This document shows positions 7,803 to 56,573 of a stretch of 64,000 nt of DNA, piece after piece. Position 1 is the first letter of the stretch. Every line of letters starts with the position of its first letter. Both the position numbers and the translations under genes were made by a program. The notes beneath the pieces were generated by a model. That model searched no databases and was not told where the DNA came from. It saw only the letters and a program-made list of their open reading frames with translations. The DNA is from Nitrospirota bacterium (GTDB taxonomy: Bacteria > Nitrospirota > Nitrospiria > JACQBZ01): positions 9,546 through 73,545 of the forward strand of contig JACQCA010000081.1 of NCBI GenBank assembly GCA_016201865.1, written 5' to 3'.

Positions 7803-7833
7803 GGCTCTTTAGGGGGAACAGATTTCAAATCTG
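7803..7833. repeat. Family A palindromic element (imperfect copy) filling the intercistronic spacer
   Basis: GGGGGAACAGATTTCAAATCTGTCCTCTCCC. The whole 47-bp gap between the LpoB-like stop (7844) and the next gene's start (7796) is this hairpin. Confidence 0.7.
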
Positions 7834-7843
7834 TCCTCTCCCA

Positions 7844-8485
7844 TTAGAATCCGAGACGGCTTTTTTCGATGATCTTTTTAATTTTTTTCTGCCCGGACCA
7901 GACCTTCAGGTTTTTCTCGACATCAAAGAGTTCCAGGTCCACCTGGTAGAAAACAACCTTGGTTCCTTTCTCTTCATCCAAAATCGAATTGATCGTGCCC
8001 TTGAGCATGTAGTCGGCGCCGATCTCCTTTCCCAAGCCTTTGGCCGTCTCCTCAGAAGACTGGGATTGCTGCTCCTGACGCTCCTCACGAATCTCCTCGC
8101 GCTCGGATTTGGACGCGACGAACTGAACACGGCCGTCGTTCGTCAATTCGCGTTCCAGGTCTTTGGTAAAGGTCTGGACGCTGATGTGTTCGTTGCTCCG
8201 GTTCGTCACGGTTCCCACGATCACGGTCGGTGCTTTGGCGCCATGCTGCTTGGAAAACCGATCGAGCCACGGCCGGGACAACACGTCCTTGATCATCTCC
8301 TCGGCCACGAGGCGGGAATCGGTGTCGTTCCATCGGCCGGACAGATCGGTCGCCTTCTCGACCCCGACCCGTTCGACCTTCGTCGTCGCGCAGCCGATCA
8401 GGCCCGTAAGCGTCAGAACCGTCAAAAGGCCGATCCATCGCATCGAACGTATTCCGAAAACGGTTTTCAAAGAGATCCTTTCCAT
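7844..8485 (-). CDS. LpoB-like (COG3417) lipoprotein
   Basis: Lipobox LTGLIGCATT. PTVIVGTVTNRSNEHIS...ADYMLKGTI parallels E. coli LpoB GSVLLVDSVNNRTNGSL...AHYVLYSS. Confidence 0.65.
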   Translation of the reverse strand: MERISLKTVFGIRSMRWIGLLTVLTLTGLIGCATTKVERVGVEKATDLSGRWNDTDSRLVAEEMIKDVLSRPWLDRFSKQHGAKAPTVIVGTVTNRSNEHISVQTFTKDLERELTNDGRVQFVASKSEREEIREERQEQQSQSSEETAKGLGKEIGADYMLKGTINSILDEEKGTKVVFYQVDLELFDVEKNLKVWSGQKKIKKIIEKSRLGF

Positions 8486-8514: not shown

Positions 8515-9114
8515 CTACCGAGCCCGCTTCTCCTCTTCGGCCGCAAGGCCCTCGAAAGACTTTTCCGCGTTCTTCTTCACATAATCCCGCACGGCGGAGT
8601 TCAGCTCTTTGATCTTATCCAGGCTGTTCTTGAAGTTCTCCAGATCCAGACGGGCCAGAGAGTAGAGCGTCCCGTCCGAAGGATCGGTCCAGTGGTCGAT
8701 GATCATCACCCCGTTCAAGGTCGCCGACGAGAAGGTCTTGATCGCCTGCTCGACATACTGTTCCTCGCTCGTCGCCGAGGCGCCGGTCACGGCCCCTCCG
8801 CCCGTCGTGGAGGCGGCGTAATCTTTCATCAACGACGCGGTGTAGGTTTCGAAAATCTTGGCGATCTGGGCGCGGGCCCGGTCCTCCGAAGCGGTCTGGG
8901 CCAGCGGTTTGTTCCGGACTCCGGTAATCGCCCCGACCCCATAGAATACCTTATTGCCTGCATCTTTGAAGGCCCCGCTTCCTTTAGTCACCCATTCCGG
9001 CGGCTGGGCGGCGGACGGCGCGGCCTGCTTACCGGCGCAACCCGTCATGGAAATCGGCAACAGGACCGATAGAACAATACCGAGCATAATGACGCTGGGA
9101 TTCTTTCGCTTCAT
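8515..9114 (-). CDS. LPP20-family lipoprotein
   Basis: Lipobox SMTGCAG. LPP20 segment FYGVGAITGVRNKPLAQTASEDRARAQIAKIF. Confidence 0.7.
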   Translation of the reverse strand: MKRKNPSVIMLGIVLSVLLPISMTGCAGKQAAPSAAQPPEWVTKGSGAFKDAGNKVFYGVGAITGVRNKPLAQTASEDRARAQIAKIFETYTASLMKDYAASTTGGGAVTGASATSEEQYVEQAIKTFSSATLNGVMIIDHWTDPSDGTLYSLARLDLENFKNSLDKIKELNSAVRDYVKKNAEKSFEGLAAEEEKRAR

Positions 9115-9175: not shown

Positions 9176-9844
9176 TTAAAAGGTATAGTTGGCCGCGACC
9201 GTCGGCCCGGCAAAGACATCCCGGTATCGCAAGCAAGACGATCCACAGGATTCCCCGCCCGAGGGATAATCGATCCGCCGGTACGCATACCCCACGACGC
9301 CCACGACGGGCCAACGGATACCGGCATAGCTGATCCCCCCTTCCAGAGAGAATCCCTGGATCAAGGCCGTATTCAGGTAGACGGCCGAGCGCGAATTCGG
9401 AAGAGGATAATCGATCAACAGGCCGATCCCGGCCGCGGCGAACTCGACCCGCCCGATGCAGCCCGCCACGCAGCCCCGGTCGGTTCGTTGAAGATGCCGC
9501 ACATAACCGATGTACGGGCTCGCCCATGTCTCGACGGAATATCCGACCGCCAGTTCCATCTCCGAAACGTCCACCTTCACTCCTTTAACAAAGACGGTGC
9601 TGCCGACGGCCGATTCTCCCGAGTCGACGAAGGTTCCCGCGGCGTAGCTTGCGCCGAGAAACAGGTGGCCGGATGCCGCATGGACGGTCAGACTCCGCAG
9701 CCATGCGGCATCCGTCGAGGGAGTCTCCGTGCGACGGCCGTTGATCTTCAAGGTCCGCGTCAATCCGGCATACTCCCCTTTAATCCCCAGCGCAAAATGG
9801 ATTTCATCGGCCGACGCCGGAACGGGAAGAAGACCCATGACCAT
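9176..9844 (-). CDS. Outer-membrane beta-barrel protein
   Basis: Signal peptide [12 protein letters not shown], alternating amphipathic strands and an aromatic C-terminus NYTF. The track ORF is extended at the 5' end. The start was chosen at MVMG. Confidence 0.6.
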
Positions 9845-13369: not shown

Positions 13370-14124
13370 GCGCCGCGAAGGAATCCGCAAAAATTATTCT
13401 GGACAACCTTCGAGCCTATATCCAGATGTACCGGGAATGGGGATTCGAAGGAGTGTCGGTGAAATGGCCAGTTCAGGACGACGTAGGGGCACGGCGCGCC
13501 GTGCCCCTACCAACAACCGTGCAGCCCACCGTACATTCGAATGCTGACGACCTGACCGCCCTTCGCGATGAGATCGGCGACTGCATGCGATGCAAGCTTT
13601 CTTCCGGTCGGACCCATCTCGTGTTCGGGACGGGCGATTCGGAGGCCGATCTGATGTTCATCGGTGAAGCGCCGGGCGAGGATGAAGACCGTCAGGGAAA
13701 ACCCTTTGTAGGCAAGGCCGGGCAGCTCCTCACCCGCATCATCGAGGCGATGGGACTCAAACGCGAGGAGGTCTATATCGCCAATATCATCAAATGCCGC
13801 CCGCCCGGAAACCGGAATCCGGAGCCGGATGAGATCGCAACCTGTTCCCCTTTCATCCAACGGCAAATCGAGATCCTGCGGCCCAAAGTGATCTGTGCGC
13901 TCGGAACCTTCGCGGCCCAGACCCTTCTGGGCACGGGACAGAAAATCTCCCAGCTCCGCGGACGATTTCATAATCTGCCGATCCTATTCTCCGACGGCTC
14001 ACCGGCCGGGATCAAAGTCATGCCGACCTTCCATCCGGCTTATCTTCTGAGAAACCCGGACGACAAAAAACGGGTCTGGGGCGATATGCAATTGATTATG
14101 CGTGAATTACGGAGTGACCGATGA
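13366..14124 (+). CDS. udg: Uracil-DNA glycosylase, family 4
   Basis: GEAPGEDEDRQGKPFVGKAGQLL and CMRCKL. ATGA overlap with tsaE. The track ORF at 13222 is an in-frame artefactual extension. Confidence 0.85.
   Translation: MSAAKESAKIILDNLRAYIQMYREWGFEGVSVKWPVQDDVGARRAVPLPTTVQPTVHSNADDLTALRDEIGDCMRCKLSSGRTHLVFGTGDSEADLMFIGEAPGEDEDRQGKPFVGKAGQLLTRIIEAMGLKREEVYIANIIKCRPPGNRNPEPDEIATCSPFIQRQIEILRPKVICALGTFAAQTLLGTGQKISQLRGRFHNLPILFSDGSPAGIKVMPTFHPAYLLRNPDDKKRVWGDMQLIMRELRSDR
13483..13508. repeat. Family B palindromic element inserted in-frame in the udg N-terminal region
   Basis: TAGGGGCACGGCGCGCCGTGCCCCTA. It is translated as DVGARRAVPLP and is a near-copy of the intergenic element at 23563. 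Confidence 0.6.
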
Positions 14125-15412: not shown

Positions 15413-15475
15413 GGAATCCCGTTATCCAGACGATTGGTTCAGGGTTGGCCGGAAAGAACTCAGAGGATAAACAAC

Positions 15476-16915
15476 ATGCAACTTGACCCATTGCCGCTGC
15501 CAGCAGTGCAAGACAGTCCGGCGGCTTCGTCCGCGCTTCGAAAAGTCGACAAGCTGAATCGCGCAGCGGAGCGACGTTGGAAAGACAAGCTGATTATTGA
15601 AACTGCGCTTTCTCGATCGCTGGTGAGTTTCCAAGCCAACAAAGGCAGAGCAGTCTATCGCTGGTTCAAATATAAGGAAGCATTCTCCGCCGAAATGGTG
15701 GAGTATTTCCTGAACCGCTACAAGATTTCTAAAGGTGTCCTGATCGATCCATTCGCCGGAAGCGGCACGGCGCTTTTTGCGGCCGGTGCTTTCGGAATGA
15801 AGGCCGAGGGCATTGAGTTGTTGCCCATCGGGCAGACGGTCATTGCAACCAAGCAGCTTATTGATTGGGAAATTCGGCAGCAAGATGTAGAGCGTGTGGC
15901 TTTGTGGCTACAAGAGCAGCCTTGGAAGAATCATGCCGTTGTGAAACCGATCAACGAACTCCGGATTACTCGCGGCGCATATCCAAAAGAAACGGTTGTG
16001 GCAATGGGCAGATTTCTCGGTGCTTCCGAGCAAGAAAGCCAACATGTCAAGACCGTTCTACTTTTCGCGCTTCTCTGCGTCCTCGAATCCATCAGCTACA
16101 CCAGAAAAGATGGGCAGTACCTCCGTTGGGACTATCGCTCCGGTAGGCGGATAGGAAAGAAAGTTTTCGACAAGGGCGAGATTCTATCGTTCGATAAAGC
16201 CATTACCATGAAATTGCAGGAGATCGTTACTGACCTTCGTTCCGCAGAAATGCCTGAAGACTTGTTTAAACCGCTTCGAGCGCGCACTGAAATTGCCCTG
16301 CATTCAGGTTCATGTCTCAACATTTTGCCGCAACTTGCGGCTGGCACCTACGATTGTCTAATTACTTCACCGCCCTATTGTAATCGCTATGACTACACGC
16401 GGACTTACGCGCTTGAGCTTGCATTGCTCGGAGTAGATGAAGAAGGCCTGCTTAAACTCAGGCAGGAAATGCTCAGTTGCACCGTTGAAAACAGAGCCAA
16501 GGACCTCTTGGCAATGAATCCGAATTGGAAATCTGCGATTGAGTCGGCTGACCGACATAAGCTGCTTCAATCCATTCTTGAATATCTTGAATCAGAGAAG
16601 GAACTCGACCTCTTAAATAACGACGGCATCCCACGAATGGTTCGGGGATACTTCTATGAGATGGCCTGTGTCATTGCTGAGTGTGCTCGCATTTTGAAGC
16701 CTGGAGCCCCGCTTATTATGGTGAATGACAATGTCCGATACCAAGGCGCAAGTGTATCGGTGGACATCATTCTCACAGAGATTGCGGAGCGCCTGGGCTT
16801 TACCGCAGAACAGATTCTCGTCTTGCCGAACGGAAAGGGAAACAGCAGCCAACAAATGGGCGCGCACGGCCGGGAGCCGCTAAGGAAATGTGTCTATGTC
16901 TGGCGGAAGGCCTGA
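15476..16915 (+). CDS. SAM-dependent amino-methyltransferase, probably a DNA N4-cytosine or N6-adenine methyltransferase; paralogue 1
   Basis: Motif I LIDPFAGSGTALFAA sits ~200 aa before motif IV LITSPPYCNRYDYTRTY, which is alpha-class order. RBS GAGGA precedes ATG 15476. ~52% GC. Confidence 0.6.
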   Translation: MQLDPLPLPAVQDSPAASSALRKVDKLNRAAERRWKDKLIIETALSRSLVSFQANKGRAVYRWFKYKEAFSAEMVEYFLNRYKISKGVLIDPFAGSGTALFAAGAFGMKAEGIELLPIGQTVIATKQLIDWEIRQQDVERVALWLQEQPWKNHAVVKPINELRITRGAYPKETVVAMGRFLGASEQESQHVKTVLLFALLCVLESISYTRKDGQYLRWDYRSGRRIGKKVFDKGEILSFDKAITMKLQEIVTDLRSAEMPEDLFKPLRARTEIALHSGSCLNILPQLAAGTYDCLITSPPYCNRYDYTRTYALELALLGVDEEGLLKLRQEMLSCTVENRAKDLLAMNPNWKSAIESADRHKLLQSILEYLESEKELDLLNNDGIPRMVRGYFYEMACVIAECARILKPGAPLIMVNDNVRYQGASVSVDIILTEIAERLGFTAEQILVLPNGKGNSSQQMGAHGREPLRKCVYVWRKA

Positions 16916-17162
16916 GCGAATGGCGAAGCCCTATCGTCAGCATCTGAAGTCCGGCAAGGATTTAGAAACCACCTATGAAGCTATTCGAGCGGGGTTTGTT
17001 ACGGGGTGTATTTTGATTGGGGACCGGATTCGAAAACTTATCACTCGCATGTGGACGTATACTCAATTCCAGATTTGCCAGAGCACATCTAACTCGCGCT
17101 GGAGCGACCGCATTTAGCAGGCGGCTTAGCTTAGCGGTTGGTTCTAATGATGAGAGAATGAA

Positions 17163-18458
17163 ATGAAGACGCAATTAACCTTCTTTAGTGAGGCAGAAGC
17201 TCCCACCGCGAACTTGAAAGCCTCGCGCTCCGGAACCTTCCTCGATAATATGTCTCTCCCCATTCATCGTTGGTTCCGATACTCCGCGGGTTTTTCAGCG
17301 CAATGGGTTGAGCGGGTTCTTGATGATTGGCAAATTGATTCTCGTCACATTGTGCTTGATCCCTTTGCTGGATCGGGCACCGTGTCCGTTGTGTGCGACA
17401 CACGAGGGATAAGAAGCATCGGCATTGAAGCCCATCCTGTTGTTGCCCGGGCATGCAAAGCAAAACTGAGTTGGGCAACCTTAATTGAGCGATTTTCCGC
17501 TTTTGCGGAACAGACCGTTAAGTCGGCTAAGCTCTCCCCGGCGGCTTTGTCACAATACCCCAGCCTGATACAGCGCAGCTTTGATCCGGATTCGCTCGCC
17601 GTCTTGGACTCGCTCAAAACCGCTTGGTTCTCCCTTAATGATGAATCACACGAATCCGAACTCGTCTGGCTCGCAATAACGGCCGTTTTGCGCGCCTGCT
17701 CGAAAGCAGGCACTGCCCAATGGCAATATATTCTGCCTAATAAATCAAAAGCGAACGTCGCTTTCCCCGACATAGCATTTCGCCGGCAGATTGAAATGAT
17801 GAAACTAGATATGCGATGGATGCAGAACCGGGTCAAAGAATCACTTGGAGAAGTGATTTCAACCGATGCAAGGCATTGTTCAGACTCCATCACCCACAAA
17901 GTCGACGCAGTCATCACCTCTCCTCCCTATGCAAACAACTATGATTATGCCGATGCGTTGCGCTTTGAAATGACCTTCTGGGGTGAGGTTAACGGATGGG
18001 GTGATATTCACGACAAAGTAAGGAAGTACCTCATGGTATCGTCATCCCAACATTCATCCCATGACAAGCTTGATGCGGAATCCTTGCTTTCACTGTCTAT
18101 GGTCGAGCCGATTCGGAAGGAACTGACGTCCGTCGTTCATGAGTTGTCGCGCGTCCGAGAAATGCATGGAGGCAAGAAAAATTACCATACGATGGTGGCG
18201 GCATACTGCCGGGATATTTCATTGGTGTTGCATCAACTCCGTCGGGTTTGCAGGAAAGGTGCGAAGATGTGCTGGGTCATTGGTGATTCAGCCCCTTATG
18301 GAGTGTATTGCCCGATTGAAAAATGGATCGGCGAACTCGCCCTTGCCGCCGGCTTTGACAGCTATACTTTCAAGAAGCTCAGAGATAGAAATATCAAATG
18401 GAAAAACAGAAAACATCGAGTTCCACTGAAGGAAGGACTCCTTTGGATTGAGGGTTAA
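17163..18458 (+). CDS. SAM-dependent amino-methyltransferase, paralogue 2
   Basis: VLDPFAGSGTVSVV ... VITSPPYANNYDYADA. It shares the N-terminal box HRWFRYSAGFS with paralogue 1 (YRWFKYKEAFS). Confidence 0.6.
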   Translation: MKTQLTFFSEAEAPTANLKASRSGTFLDNMSLPIHRWFRYSAGFSAQWVERVLDDWQIDSRHIVLDPFAGSGTVSVVCDTRGIRSIGIEAHPVVARACKAKLSWATLIERFSAFAEQTVKSAKLSPAALSQYPSLIQRSFDPDSLAVLDSLKTAWFSLNDESHESELVWLAITAVLRACSKAGTAQWQYILPNKSKANVAFPDIAFRRQIEMMKLDMRWMQNRVKESLGEVISTDARHCSDSITHKVDAVITSPPYANNYDYADALRFEMTFWGEVNGWGDIHDKVRKYLMVSSSQHSSHDKLDAESLLSLSMVEPIRKELTSVVHELSRVREMHGGKKNYHTMVAAYCRDISLVLHQLRRVCRKGAKMCWVIGDSAPYGVYCPIEKWIGELALAAGFDSYTFKKLRDRNIKWKNRKHRVPLKEGLLWIEG

Positions 18459-18460
18459 TC

Positions 18461-19321
18461 ATGGCGGAATCACTGGCGCATACGTTTGGGCAGATTATCG
18501 GCAACGTTCTTGAAGAGGCTGTCGAACCGGCACTCAGGAAGTTCGCCGGTGATCACGGCTTACTCTTGGACAAAAAGGGACACAGGAATGCGCGAAAAGG
18601 AAAGAAAGTCACATGGACAGACATCTATGGTAATTCTCACGACTTGGATTTCGTCCTTGAGCGTGGCGGCACGGAAAAGACCATCGGGACACCTGTTGCG
18701 TTTATTGAAACAGCATGGAGAAGATACACGAAGCACTCCCGAAACAAAGCACAGGAGATACAGGGCGCAATTCAAGCGCTGGCGCTTACGCACAAATACA
18801 GTCATCCGTTTATAGGCACCATTTTGGCCGGGGTCTTCACTGATGGCGCATTGACGCAGTTGAAGTCCTTGGGATTCCACGTTTTGTACTTTCCTTACAA
18901 ATCCATCCTCACGGCTTTCAAATCGGTGGGCGTTGATGCAGACTTCAACGAGAACACACCGGAAAAAGAGTTCCGCCGCAAACTCAGACAATGGAAATCA
19001 ATAAGCAAGAAAATAAAACGTAGTATTGCGAAATGCCTCATTGATTTGCACAAGGCCGACATTCAAGCCTTTTTTGACGCACTCGAAAAGAGCATCGCAC
19101 GGAAGATAGCCAAGATCACCATCATTCCATTGCATGGCCGGGAATCTGAACACCGGACGGTTGAAACAGCCATTGAATTCCTGACATCATATAAAGCAAC
19201 CAATATGGAAGCAGGCGTTTATAAGTTCGAGATTTACATCCGCTACTCAAATGGTGATCGAATTACCGCTGAGTTCACTGATAAAAACGCCGCTGTGGAG
19301 TTCCTGAACAAATACATGTGA
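18461..19321 (+). CDS. Hypothetical protein, candidate PD-(D/E)xK restriction endonuclease
   Basis: Its ATG lies 2 nt after the methyltransferase-2 stop. Length 286 aa. Possible nuclease core HDLDFVLE...AFIETAW. AT-rich codon usage. Confidence 0.35.
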   Translation: MAESLAHTFGQIIGNVLEEAVEPALRKFAGDHGLLLDKKGHRNARKGKKVTWTDIYGNSHDLDFVLERGGTEKTIGTPVAFIETAWRRYTKHSRNKAQEIQGAIQALALTHKYSHPFIGTILAGVFTDGALTQLKSLGFHVLYFPYKSILTAFKSVGVDADFNENTPEKEFRRKLRQWKSISKKIKRSIAKCLIDLHKADIQAFFDALEKSIARKIAKITIIPLHGRESEHRTVETAIEFLTSYKATNMEAGVYKFEIYIRYSNGDRITAEFTDKNAAVEFLNKYM

Positions 19322-19399: not shown

Positions 19400-22156
19400 A
19401 TGTCCGATCTCACCCCCCTCATGAAACAGTATACGGAGATCAAACAGCGTCATAAGGACGCGATTCTGTTTTTCCGCGTGGGCGATTTCTATGAGATGTT
19501 CTTCGAGGACGCCGTGATCGCCTCGAAGATTCTCGAGATCGCGCTGACCTCGCGCGACAAATCGAAGGAAGACGCGGTGCCGCTCTGCGGCATCCCCTAT
19601 CACGCCGCCTCGACCTACATCGCCAAACTGATTCGGGCCGGGAAGAGCGTCGCGATCTGCGATCAGGTCGAGGATCCCGCCTTGGCCAAGGGTCTTGTCC
19701 GCCGCGAAGTCGTCCGGGTCATCACGCCGGGCACGCTGATCGAACCGGAGCTTCTTTCCGCCGACCAAAACAACTACCTTGCCTCGGTGGCCCTCTCCAA
19801 GGCAGGCTGCGGGCTGGCGTTTGTTGATCTGTCGACGGGAGAGTTCAACCTGACCCAGTTCGACGGCGCCGCGGCCCAAGAAGAACTTCTATCCGAACTG
19901 TCCCGATTGGATCCCAAAGAGATCCTTCTGGCCGAATCTGAGCTGGCGCGCTTTGAGACTTCGCTGAACGATCAGACAACCGCGCAGATATCTTCAATGC
20001 GACTCTGCCGGTTTACGGACACCGCCTTTGATCCCGGATTGGCTCGTCAAGCGCTGCTGGATCATTTTCAACTTCAGTCCCTGGCCGGTTTCGGTTGCGA
20101 AGAGATCCCGATGGCCGTCGCGGCCGCCGGCGCATTGTTGCGCTATCTCCAAGAGACCCAGCTCACGGCCCTGGGACATTTAAACCGAATCAAACCATAC
20201 CGGCGCGCGGACCATCTCATACTGGATTCGATCACGCAACGGAATCTGGAGTTGACCCGGCGTCTGATGGACGGCCGTCCGGAAGGCTCGTTGCTCTGGA
20301 CGCTGGACCGGACCCTCACGCCGATGGGCGCGCGGCTCCTCCGGAACTGGCTGCTTCAGCCGCTGCTGGACATCCCGGCCATTCGGGCGCGGCAGTCCGC
20401 GATCGAAGCCTTCTGGGTCGAGACGATGCATCGGACGCGTCTTCGTTCAATCTTCAAGGGCATCGCAGACCTGGAACGGCTCATCGGACGGATCTCGCTC
20501 GGCACGGCCAACGCCCGCGACCTCATTCAACTCAAAAATTCGATCGCGCAGCTTCCGTCCGTCTACAAATGTCTGGCGGAACAGCCGGACAGAATTTACA
20601 TCGGGGGGGGACAGATTTCAAATCTGTCCCCAGCCACTCCCCAGCCAGTACTGGAATCCATCCGCGCCGGATGGGACGATCTCACCGATATCCAGTCCCG
20701 AATCCAACAGACTCTGGTGGACGATCCGCCGCCGGGGCTGCGCGACGGCGGACTGATCCGGGACGGTATTGACCCGACGCTGGACGAGCTGAAAGACATC
20801 GCCCGCGATGGAAAACGCTGGCTCTCAGCCCTGGAAGCGAAAGAGCGGGAACGGACCGGGATCGAATCGCTCAAGGTGCGTTACAACCAGGTGTTTGGAT
20901 ACTACATCGAGGTGACGAAGACCCATCTCTCGCGCGTGCCGACGGATTACCACCGCAAACAGACGCTTGTGAATGCCGAGCGGTTCATCACGCCCGAGTT
21001 AAAAGAACTGGAAACCAAGGTGCTCGGCGCGGAAGAACACCGCCGGGGGCTTGAGTACGAAATCTTCGAACGGCTTCGTAAGGAGGTCGCGGATTCCACT
21101 CCCCGGGTTCAGGCGATGGCGCGGTCGGTCGCTCTCTTAGATGTCTTATCCACGCTGGCCGAGGTTGCGGCGACGGAGCATTATGTCAGGCCCGAGGTCC
21201 ATGACGGCGATGAGATCCGGATCGTCGACGGCCGCCATCCGATGTTGGAGCGAATGCTGCCGAGAGGGGCCCGGTTCATCCCGAACGATGCCATCATAGA
21301 TCGGCAAGACAACCGATTGCTGATCATCACCGGACCCAACATGGCCGGCAAGTCCACCTATATGCGACAGGTCGCGTTGATCGTGATTCTGGCCCAGATC
21401 GGCGGCTTCGTGCCGGCCGCCGAAGCCCGAATCGGGATGGTGGACCGGATCTTCACGCGGATCGGGGCCTCGGATGATCTGATGGGCGGGCAGAGCACCT
21501 TCATGGTCGAGATGACCGAAACGGCCGCCCTCCTTCATCAGGCCACCGGCCGGAGTCTGATCCTGTTGGACGAGATCGGACGCGGGACGAGCACCTTCGA
21601 CGGCGTCAGCATCGCCTGGGCCGTGGCCGAATACCTTCACGACACGACCCGATCCGGCGCGCGGACGCTCTTCGCCACCCATTATCATCAGCTCACCGAA
21701 TTGGCTTTGACTTTTCCCGGAATAAAGAATTACAATATCGCCGTTCGCGAATGGAACGACGAGATCATCTTTCTTCGGAAGATCGTGGCGGGCGGGACCG
21801 ATCGGAGTTACGGCATCCAGGTGGCCCGACTGGCCGGTCTGCCTCATGAGGTCATCGGCCGAGCGAAGGAAATCTTGGCCAACCTGGAAAGCGGAGAACT
21901 CAACGAGTTCGGCCAACCCCGGTTGGCTTCGAGTCCCGATTCACCGTCGGCCGCTACGGATGCCGCGCAGCTCGATCTCTTAACCGGGAGGGGACCGATT
22001 TCCAATCCGTCCCCGGCCGACAGGCATCCCGTCATCAAAGAAATTTTGCAGGAACTCCGGGAAATGGATCTTGACCGTCTCACGCCGCTGGAGGCGATCA
22101 ACCGCCTCCATGAACTGAGGAAGAAGGCCGAGGGGGCGTCCGAAGGGGCCTCCTAA
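19400..22156 (+). CDS. mutS: DNA mismatch repair protein MutS
   Basis: MSDLTPLMKQYTEIKQRH, the Walker A motif GPNMAGKSTYMRQ and DEIGRGTSTFDG. The start was set at MSDL (RBS AAGGAA). Confidence 0.95.
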   Translation: MSDLTPLMKQYTEIKQRHKDAILFFRVGDFYEMFFEDAVIASKILEIALTSRDKSKEDAVPLCGIPYHAASTYIAKLIRAGKSVAICDQVEDPALAKGLVRREVVRVITPGTLIEPELLSADQNNYLASVALSKAGCGLAFVDLSTGEFNLTQFDGAAAQEELLSELSRLDPKEILLAESELARFETSLNDQTTAQISSMRLCRFTDTAFDPGLARQALLDHFQLQSLAGFGCEEIPMAVAAAGALLRYLQETQLTALGHLNRIKPYRRADHLILDSITQRNLELTRRLMDGRPEGSLLWTLDRTLTPMGARLLRNWLLQPLLDIPAIRARQSAIEAFWVETMHRTRLRSIFKGIADLERLIGRISLGTANARDLIQLKNSIAQLPSVYKCLAEQPDRIYIGGGQISNLSPATPQPVLESIRAGWDDLTDIQSRIQQTLVDDPPPGLRDGGLIRDGIDPTLDELKDIARDGKRWLSALEAKERERTGIESLKVRYNQVFGYYIEVTKTHLSRVPTDYHRKQTLVNAERFITPELKELETKVLGAEEHRRGLEYEIFERLRKEVADSTPRVQAMARSVALLDVLSTLAEVAATEHYVRPEVHDGDEIRIVDGRHPMLERMLPRGARFIPNDAIIDRQDNRLLIITGPNMAGKSTYMRQVALIVILAQIGGFVPAAEARIGMVDRIFTRIGASDDLMGGQSTFMVEMTETAALLHQATGRSLILLDEIGRGTSTFDGVSIAWAVAEYLHDTTRSGARTLFATHYHQLTELALTFPGIKNYNIAVREWNDEIIFLRKIVAGGTDRSYGIQVARLAGLPHEVIGRAKEILANLESGELNEFGQPRLASSPDSPSAATDAAQLDLLTGRGPISNPSPADRHPVIKEILQELREMDLDRLTPLEAINRLHELRKKAEGASEGAS
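20603..20631. repeat. Family A palindromic element, a perfect copy inserted in-frame in mutS
   Basis: GGGGGGGGACAGATTTCAAATCTGTCCCC. A 12-bp stem with a 1-nt loop. It is translated as GGGQISNLSP. Confidence 0.75.
21990..22014. repeat. Family A palindromic element, a diverged copy in-frame in the mutS C-terminal linker
   Basis: GGGGACCGATTTCCAATCCGTCCCC. Three substitutions relative to the perfect copy. It is translated as RGPISNPSP. Confidence 0.65.
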
Positions 22157-23550: not shown

Positions 23551-23562
23551 CCCAACGCACAT

Positions 23563-23590
23563 AGGGGCGCGGCGCGCCGCGCCCCTATGG
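23563..23590. terminator. Family B palindrome acting as a bidirectional terminator between convergent genes
   Basis: ATAGGGGCGCGGCGCGCCGCGCCCCTAT. A perfect palindrome. Confidence 0.6.
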
Positions 23591-27020: not shown

Positions 27021-27042
27021 TAATGCCCCCTTTTTTCTGGAG

Positions 27043-27090
27043 GGGACAGATTTGAAATCCGTCCCCCGTTCGTAGATTTGAAATTTCAAA
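27043..27090. repeat. Family A palindromic element plus an adjacent half-copy in the rpsO-pnp leader
   Basis: GGGGACAGATTTGAAATCCGTCCCC, then AGATTTGAAATTTCAAA. On the minus (coding) strand the hairpin sits immediately 5' of the pnp SD. Confidence 0.7.
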
Positions 27091-27209
27091 CCAGGCATGC
27101 GGTGACTCGGGGGCAGGAAGTAGGGAGGCATGCGCCCTTCCCATGGAAACGGCGCATCCCGTCCTATCTCCTTTCCCCAAGATTCGGATGCCGACTCGCT
27201 GACGACCGA

Positions 27210-35791: not shown

Positions 35792-35816
35792 AATCTCAAA
35801 TTTCAAATTTGAGATT
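35792..35816. repeat. Intercistronic perfect palindrome AATCTCAAATTT-C-AAATTTGAGATT
   Basis: It overlaps the stop codon of the 35815..36543 gene and ends 11 nt before the downstream SD. It shares the ATTTCAAAT core with family A. Confidence 0.6.
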
Positions 35817-56499: not shown

Positions 56500-56573
56500 G
56501 TTAGATCTCCTGTGGGCAAGATTTGGGGGCCGGGTTTAAAACCGGCCCCCAGGATTTGTAATGAGGTTGGCGA

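Follow-up and report, generated by a model that had tools for sequence, protein, structure and literature searches.

Why does the mutS gene of an uncultured Nitrospirota bacterium hold two copies of a short palindrome within an intact reading frame, and from what kind of element could such a palindrome derive? The stretch of DNA analysed here (the window, 64,000 nucleotides (nt) long) corresponds to positions 9,546 to 73,545 of contig JACQCA010000081.1 in the GenBank assembly GCA_016201865.1. An initial annotation of the window had described a perfect 25-nt palindrome at 20607-20631 and a copy with three substitutions at 21990-22014, both located in mutS without breaking its frame. Sequence, open reading frame (ORF) and Pfam analyses fully agree with this description. 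The first copy, GGGGACAGATTTCAAATCTGTCCCC, is made of two 12-nt arms separated by a single base (GGGGACAGATTT-C-AAATCTGTCCCC), and the second reads GGGGACCGATTTCCAATCCGTCCCC. The two intergenic copies announced at 7803-7833 and 27043-27067 also exist, but their coordinates had to be corrected to 7814-7838 and 27042-27066. The features concerned are the following.

19400-22156, plus strand: mutS coding sequence, 918 amino acids (aa), from its ORF and translation; the Pfam domains MutS_I to MutS_V are all found
20607-20631, no strand assigned: site 1, perfect 25-nt palindrome, read as GGQISNLSP at MutS residues ~402-411
21990-22014, no strand assigned: site 2, decayed copy GGGGACCGATTTCCAATCCGTCCCC, read as GPISNPSP at MutS residues ~863-872
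7814-7838, no strand assigned: intergenic copy with 2 mismatches, flanked by an LpoB-like gene (7844-8485, minus strand) and the next minus-strand gene (start 7796)
27042-27066, no strand assigned: intergenic copy with G as its centre base, between rpsO and pnp; the start codon of pnp (27021, minus strand) is 20 nt downstream of it
56525-56550, no strand assigned: hairpin GGGGGCCGGGTTTAAAACCGGCCCCC between two minus-strand genes, a possible diverged family member whose membership is uncertain

These copies are not expected by chance. A degenerate form of the palindrome pattern matches the window four times and was never found in 100 dinucleotide-preserving shuffles, and the 12-nt arm occurs seven times for an expectation of 0.44. 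The uncertain hairpin at 56525-56550, obtained in a relaxed scan, differs from the consensus by 4-5 mismatches. The RNA hairpin predicted at site 1 has a folding energy of -22 kcal/mol (z = -3.75). On the transcribed strand, the A/C mismatch of the copy at 27042-27066 corresponds to a G-U pair, and the three substitutions of site 2 break its pairing. The T-run that marks intrinsic terminators is missing downstream of all four window copies, and only a minority of the copies in other genomes lie in an A-run/T-run context. The hairpin has no match in Rfam 15 at the gathering threshold, the sole matches in the window being two tRNAs. The window also contains, at 35792-35816, where two minus-strand genes meet, an AT-rich perfect 12-1-12 palindrome, AATCTCAAATTTCAAATTTGAGATT, with an apex similar both to the apex of the main family and to native sequence of the pnp leader.

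The best homologues of the window MutS are found in uncultured Nitrospirota, with at most 87% identity. The protein had been described as about 60 aa longer than typical, which is correct in comparison with E. coli MutS (853 aa) but not with close orthologues (898-912 aa). The palindromes contribute about 8 aa each, and local duplications at site 1 a further ~9 aa. Both palindromes, which are separated by 1383 nt, are read in the same frame, as GGGQISNLSP at site 1 and GRGPISNPSP at site 2. In an alignment of 37 MutS orthologues, the segments GQISNLSP and GPISNPSP are found in none, so that these peptides are not shared with MutS proteins from unrelated lineages. The loop bearing site 1 is missing in distant MutS proteins of this alignment and is occupied by an unrelated segment of ~11 aa in most close relatives. 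Site 2 directly follows a beta-clamp-type motif (QLDLL), in the linker preceding the C-terminal helices, at a position where most orthologues have just 3-4 residues.

We compared the DNA of seven orthologous loci with the window and found the palindromes to be polymorphic for presence or absence among related genomes. At site 1, the locus L001, whose MutS is 88% identical in aa sequence to that of the window, carries a perfect copy with a G centre in the same loop. This copy is read in a different frame, as GDRFEICP, which contradicts the initial proposal of insertion in a fixed frame. At the same place, L004 has GGGGAC only and is 24 nt shorter than L001. Comparison with these two loci also revealed two local duplications in the window.

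20585-20602, plus strand: CCGGACAGAATTTACATC, an incomplete and degenerate duplicate of the left arm and apex, immediately before site 1
20627-20648, plus strand: 11-nt tandem duplication, TCCCCAGCCAC / TCCCCAGCCAG, which takes in the 3' tip of the palindrome

Together, they add 27 nt and shift the reading frame of the palindrome. At site 2, the window exceeds L005 by 24 nt. Another coding copy was found in the peptidase M16 gene that neighbours mutS, where L004 carries an in-frame copy (GGRFKICPP) in a segment of 114 nt versus 90 nt in the window, L003 and L006. Three independent coding events (mutS site 1 in L001 versus L004, mutS site 2 and M16) are therefore each associated with 24 additional nt, that is a net gain of 8 codons. 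Between genes, the junction occupied at 7814 in the window is reduced to stop-CC-ATG in the relative L006. In the rpsO-pnp spacer, the window and L002 have copies at different positions, whereas L003 and L006 have none. Native sequence resembling the apex or an arm is present at two of the insertion sites. The orthologue comparison thus upholds the idea that the copies belong to a dispersed and evidently mobile palindromic repeat, and both mutS copies are almost certainly insertions of this repeat. The arms of the window and L001 copies are identical at 24 of 24 positions (p ~0.015 at a gene-wide identity of 84%); we did not build on this conservation, which is weak evidence of constraint.

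The location of both insertions in the protein is consistent with tolerance. In a HMMER alignment, site 1 corresponds approximately to residues 380-390 of E. coli MutS, in domain III, and site 2 falls beyond residue 800, in the C-terminal linker; the expectation that the insertion points would map to a surface loop or to this linker was borne out, site 1 being in a variable loop. An AlphaFold2 model built on the orthologue alignment (mean predicted local distance difference test score, pLDDT, of 76) shows residues 394-415 and 850-874 as coil with pLDDT < 50. The palindrome peptides (402-411 and 863-872) lie inside these two segments, and both insertions are therefore predicted to be in disordered, structurally tolerant loops.

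We then asked how widespread the palindrome is. An exact scan for GGGACNGATTTNAAATCNGTCCC in one genome per GTDB species gave at least 138 copies in at least 119 loci, ruling out that the palindrome is unique to the window; the statistics given below cover the 138 copies listed. The 25-mer can be written GGGGACNGATTTNAAATCNGTCCCC, and longer elements of this kind would end in GGGGACAGATTTATTT. The hosts include Gammaproteobacteria (many metagenome-assembled genomes (MAGs), together with Marinobacter and Halorhodospira isolates, Marinobacter sp. ELB17 and M. gelidimuriae being cultured carriers), Desulfobacterota (Syntrophales, Desulfobacteraceae and Desulfurivibrio dismutans), several Nitrospirota MAGs, 'Coprothermobacterota' MAGs and single MAGs from further phyla. 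Since the GC content of the loci ranges from 46% to 66%, they cannot all come from one mis-binned organism. One copy was present in 809 kb of unrelated control contigs, which are those of MutS relatives with 44-53% identity among the matches listed in a metagenome scan.

The unit is exactly 25 nt long, with a closing G in 130 and a closing C in 128 of the 138 copies. Its flanks are near random, with a slight A/T bias and no conserved base outside the 25-mer. We could not detect target-site duplications: 107-126 copies lack any direct repeat, and the others have repeats of 1-5 nt, at chance level. The centre base is free (C in 55 copies, G in 52, A in 16 and T in 15), whereas positions 7 and 19 are complementary in 131 copies (95%), as A/T in 105 and G/C in 26, which defines subfamilies. 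About 15% of the copies lie inside extra, variable complementary flanks, neighbouring copies are often 13-17 nt apart, and partial arm 'stutters' are found 3' of many copies in other genomes. According to a crude gene call, at most a quarter of the copies are intragenic. The surrounding genes are codirectional in 51 cases, convergent in 20 and divergent in 17. In-frame copies were confirmed in other phyla in RecG, HsdR, a spermidine-synthase-like protein (two copies) and a molybdopterin oxidoreductase. Each of the three frames is used, giving GTD[LF]KSVP in 15 cases, GDRF[EQ]ICP in 6 and GQISNLSP in 5; in each frame, the insert starts with Gly and ends with Pro because the element begins with GGGG and ends with CCCC.

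The GenBank plasmid and phage collections contain the 25-mer in one Marinobacter plasmid and in no phage, and 20 loci with the 25-mer were found in viral contigs. Thirteen copies belong to one genuine phage, whose genes include those for portal, head protease, decoration and capsid proteins; most of these copies separate head genes and immediately precede ribosome-binding sites. This phage is IMGVR_UViG_3300033489_000011 (L211, L212 and L220), of 54 kb; it also contains a repeated intergenic module of ~120 nt with a terminator-like hairpin and copies of the 25-mer on both sides. Pfam and PHROG scans of 18 kb of this copy-rich phage detected no HUH or transposase gene.

A search for a full insertion sequence (IS) bounded by solo arms found none, and yielded apex variants (AATTAATT and ACTTAAGT) and longer repeat fragments. 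Apex variants with a GGGGACRG foot are present at L043:5873-6140 and L043:7412-7551 and in L049, L051, L060, L119 and L126. Among them are the 24-nt perfect palindromes GGGGACAGAATTAATTCTGTCCCC and GGGGACAGACTTAAGTCTGTCCCC, as well as GGGGACAGAGCTgaAGATCTGTCCCC units that form part of a longer repeat. The variants as a whole suggest that the hairpin foot defines a superfamily. Literature searches by arm sequence gave only unrelated primer matches, and no description of the palindrome was found in open-access text.

A candidate origin for the palindrome was provided by TIRYT genes. These genes, which encode RAYT-like tyrosine transposases, are flanked by inverted repeats with GGGGWSAS tips instead of REPs (Di Nocera et al. 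2013 PMC3733652; Quentin et al. 2018 PMC6006769). Some of these terminal inverted repeats (TIRs) form families dispersed throughout the genome, including self-complementary and clustered ones (PMC3733652; PMC6006769). The start of the palindrome, GGGGACAG, fits the GGGGWSAS motif (W=A, S=C, A, S=G). We took TIRYT query sequences from the supplement of the published TIRYT work and then sought the encoding loci. On a P. aeruginosa plasmid (L231), the TIRYT gene lies between GGGGACAGATTTATTTTCCC... and ...GGGAAAATAAATCTGTCCCC; its flank is GGGGACAGATTTATTTTCCCTACTCTAAT together with the inverse of this sequence, and the first 12 nt are exactly the arm of the window palindrome. TIRYT homologues are numerous (Pfam PF01797), and the subfamily of interest is the one typified by P. 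aeruginosa WP_016252823 and Thioalkalivibrio. The full arm (12 of 12 nt) is the repeat tip beside the TIRYT genes of L231, L257-L259 and L265-L267; the flanks of L252-L256 have a 1-nt variant on the left, and those of L260-L264 a G/C variant at the right end. In the metagenomic loci L252-L259, the tips are located ~70 nt ahead of the TIRYT start codon and 10-20 nt past the stop codon. TIRYT genes on Pseudoalteromonas, Iodobacter and Skermanella plasmids (L228, L229 and L230) are flanked by GGGGTCAGAG-type repeats, at times in tandem arrays.

The TIRYT contigs also contain a graded series of derivatives. One of them, of 127 nt, corresponds exactly to the leftmost 76 nt of the full element joined to its rightmost 51 nt (alignment A3), and another, of 54 nt, has the same ends. 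In L265-L267, about ten elements of 66-177 nt are present in 18 kb, two of which bracket the TIRYT gene in a REPtron-like arrangement. A genome bearing the 25-mer (L060 and L062) also has 20-nt stretches of the longer repeat, GGGGACAGATTTATTTTCCG. Side observations at these loci include a 66-nt element (8680-8745) inside a 941-aa ORF (L265:7059-9884) that adjoins a TIRYT gene. Large spermidine-synthase-like membrane proteins occur beside both TIRYT loci and 25-mer copies (L265:7059-9884 and L123:5281-7998), which may be a coincidence. The GGGGTCAGAGTA motif was found in the flanks of the 25-mer copies of L012 and L126, from two gammaproteobacterial MAGs in which two repeat families may therefore coexist.

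Judging from these sequence comparisons, we propose that the 25-mers are probably minimal, non-autonomous REPIN/TIR-repeat hairpins, whose ends would be recognised by the RAYT-like Y1 (HUH) transposase TIRYT and which would be mobilised in trans. They could represent the end point of a deletion series starting from a Y1-transposase element. The enzyme would be encoded once elsewhere in the genome of the Nitrospirota bacterium, or would have been present formerly, or would be brought by horizontal transfer. It would bind the hairpin of the element in single-stranded DNA and cut at both feet, and the element would re-insert elsewhere without target-site duplication, as in the 'peel-and-paste' transposition of IS200/IS605. 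IS200/IS605-type Y1 enzymes leave no target-site duplication. Most copies would persist between genes, where an RNA hairpin of ~-20 kcal/mol may act, like REPs, as an mRNA stabiliser or attenuator. Genic copies would survive only if the net change is a multiple of three, the frame is free of stops and the site tolerates an added loop. The mutS gene would have been hit twice at such sites, once in the domain III disordered loop and once past the beta-clamp motif, in the linker.

Several observations weigh against this proposal. tblastn searches of the window and of ~1 Mb of 25-mer loci (L001-L227), with RAYT and IS200 sequences and then with ten published TIRYT/RAYT sequences, detected no Y1 gene, whether TIRYT or another type. 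Conversely, the TIRYT contigs inspected contain derivatives of 54-177 nt but not a single 25-mer. All TIRYT genes with inspected flanks were obtained with gammaproteobacterial queries and none came from Nitrospirota; the loci whose TIRYT flanks were tested belong to organisms other than that of the window. No transposase recurs near the copies, the ORFs surrounding the 138 copies belonging only to common families (TonB receptors, ABC ATPases and EF-G) in an all-against-all clustering. The centre base is C or G in 107 of 138 copies, whereas a simple internal deletion of an inverted repeat predicts A or T. Finally, the net gain in genes is 24 nt and not 25. Either the mobile unit or its junction differs from our description, or a second event of 1 nt is needed. 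Viral contigs were also scanned for TIRYT genes and the longer repeat, with no useful result.

Another possibility is that no dedicated enzyme is involved, the palindrome spreading by replication template-switching or gene conversion to microhomologous sites, with the match to TIRYT tips reflecting shared ancestry only. We regard such a scenario as rather unlikely. It accounts for the stutters and partial arm duplications beside the copies, for the variable complementary flanks of ~15% of them, which look as if grown by templated correction, for the apex- or arm-like native sequence at two insertion sites, and for the lack of a transposase gene near any 25-mer. It leaves unexplained, however, the near-identity of the sequence in several phyla and in phages, its sharp ends and the graded derivatives beside Y1 transposase genes. 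The palindrome could also be the binding site of a conserved dimeric protein (a regulator, nucleoid, partition or recombinase protein) selected in place, and the two mutS copies, 1383 nt apart, could then serve as on/off recombination sites. Its perfect dyad symmetry, its conservation across phyla and its density in one phage, which recalls stoperator-like sites, would fit such a function. This is nevertheless improbable, since the copies are inserted relative to orthologues and show no preference for promoter regions, site 2 has decayed, with 3 substitutions that break its pairing, the arms covary as in a hairpin or a copied element, and they match the inverted-repeat tips of transposase genes.

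Strict equivalents of the Rickettsia palindromic elements (RPEs), that is longer mobile palindromes with a conserved ORF of their own inserted in one fixed frame, are a very improbable explanation. They would account for the in-frame insertions in loops of housekeeping genes and for the frame shared by both window copies. They do not account for a unit of exactly 25 nt in near-random flanks, which is much below the ~100-150 bp of RPEs (PMC10969869), nor for the use of all three frames, including a different one in the orthologous L001 copy. The hosts are moreover Gammaproteobacteria, Desulfobacterota, Nitrospirota and phage instead of Rickettsia. We give almost no credence to ancestral MutS sequence, chance or an assembly artefact. 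MutS linkers are admittedly variable, but the pattern is expected zero times by chance and the segments are absent from the 37 orthologues; in addition, the independent assembly L001 has the element in the same loop, and cultured isolates (Marinobacter, Halorhodospira and Desulfurivibrio) carry it. Mimicry of a tRNA anticodon arm, a BsmFI-type GGGAC site, a core site for a serine invertase or a tyrosine recombinase, and translational bypass were also envisaged and dropped, as none had supporting evidence.

Mobilisation by TIRYT, which we favour, places the 25-mers among the TIR repeats of TIRtrons, where TIRYT are RAYT-like Y1 tyrosine transposases of subclass 2.1. The two share the GGGGWSAS tip motif and the absence of target-site duplication, the 12-nt arm being the tip of TIRYT repeats, and self-complementary clustered units have been published for TIRs. 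Both have a patchy taxonomic spread of the kind produced by horizontal gene transfer. TIRYT genes are accompanied by non-autonomous derivatives with the same ends (127, 54 and 66-177 nt), although 25-mer and TIRYT were never found on one contig. The 25-mer differs in that it retains only the outermost 12 nt of each end and one centre base, and is thus shorter than any of the 54-177-nt derivatives. We found no report of intragenic, phage-borne or Nitrospirota copies for the TIR family.

The 25-mers also resemble the REP/REPIN-RAYT systems, in which short, GC-footed palindromes of 20-40 nt are present in many copies, mostly extragenic and often paired or clustered, sometimes nested in other palindromes and occasionally intragenic (PMC3733652). 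In both cases, mobilisation in trans by a single-copy Y1 transposase is presumed and side effects of mRNA hairpins are likely. The 25-mer, however, has no unpaired GTAG or CGTC tag, is perfectly symmetrical with an AT-rich apex, and is near-identical across phyla and phages; REPIN-RAYT systems, by contrast, are described as for the most part specific to a lineage and passed on vertically. The likeness to RPEs noted in the initial annotation remains valid as regards the persistence of palindromic selfish DNA, in frame, at tolerant and fold-compatible sites of functional and even essential genes, with presence/absence polymorphism. It fails for the length, the possession of a conserved ORF (PMC10969869) and the fixed frame: RPEs provide a family-specific peptide in Rickettsia-type genomes only, whereas the 25-mer provides 8 residues in any of three frames and is tied to Y1-transposase repeats. 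Classical miniature inverted-repeat transposable elements (Correia, Nezha and ERIC) are likewise non-autonomous, keep only the ends of a transposase-bearing element and can be fused in frame to ORFs, but their size of 50-400 bp, their DDE-type parents and their target-site duplications are not features of the 25-mer. The insertion of palindromes into genes is therefore a known phenomenon, since intragenic REP units (PMC3733652) and RPEs (PMC10969869) have been documented. What seems new in this family is its extreme shortness, its perfect symmetry, its near-identity across phyla and phages, its Nitrospirota hosts and the double hit in mutS.

These comparisons tie an anonymous palindrome of uncultured Nitrospirota to a concrete class of enzymes, the RAYT-like Y1 transposases with GGGGWSAS-tipped repeats. 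They suggest that a TIR repeat can be reduced to 25 nt, reach several phyla as well as phages, and remodel the loops of core proteins (MutS, RecG and HsdR) by units of 8 codons. If the link to the enzyme holds, the 25-mer would be a minimal substrate for studies of HUH transposase recognition and a marker for the horizontal spread of REPIN-like systems. For annotation, the family accounts for lineage-specific 8-aa inserts and hypervariable loops that otherwise resemble alignment noise. A bolder and doubtful extension would make the 25-mer an autonomous-looking 'nano-REPIN', the smallest mobile DNA unit yet seen, in which two 12-nt Y1 tips still proliferate, cross phyla, colonise phages (which are perhaps vehicles) and graft 8-residue Gly...Pro loops. 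Since 25 is not a multiple of three, each hit in mutS would then first have produced a frameshifted mutator allele, later rescued by a compensating indel, and the spread of the element would be tied to episodes of hypermutation.

Other features of the locus were noted in the course of this work. The rpsO-pnp spacer contains a long conserved hairpin, GGGGAAAGGAGATAGGAAGGGATGCGCC ... GGCGCATGCCTCCCTACTTCCTGCCCC, at ~27105-27190 (minus strand), which is common to L002 and L006; it has no Rfam match at the gathering threshold, and resembles the pnp autoregulatory leader of E. coli that is processed by RNase III. Directly upstream of mutS, an island of 4.4 kb (window 15434-19321) comprises two N6/N4 DNA-methylase genes and a 286-aa ORF. 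It is missing in L002, L003, L004 and L006, where a LapA-domain gene abuts mutS, and L007 has a different insert; most likely, the island encodes a restriction-modification system and occupies an insertion hotspot. A second palindrome family, TAGGGGCRCGGCGCGCCGYGCCCCTA, is present at 13483-13510 and 23560-23589 of the window. One copy (GTAG...CTAC) lies within the N-terminal linker of a family-4 uracil-DNA glycosylase gene and encodes VGARRAVPL, and the other is located between convergent GGDEF and peptidase M16 genes. An identical copy of this second family occurs in another Nitrospirae MAG (L094:647-672). In the orthologous glycosylase copy of L007 (2284-2309), pairing is kept by compensatory changes of both bases in two pairs, one going from A:T to G:C and the other from G:C to A:T.

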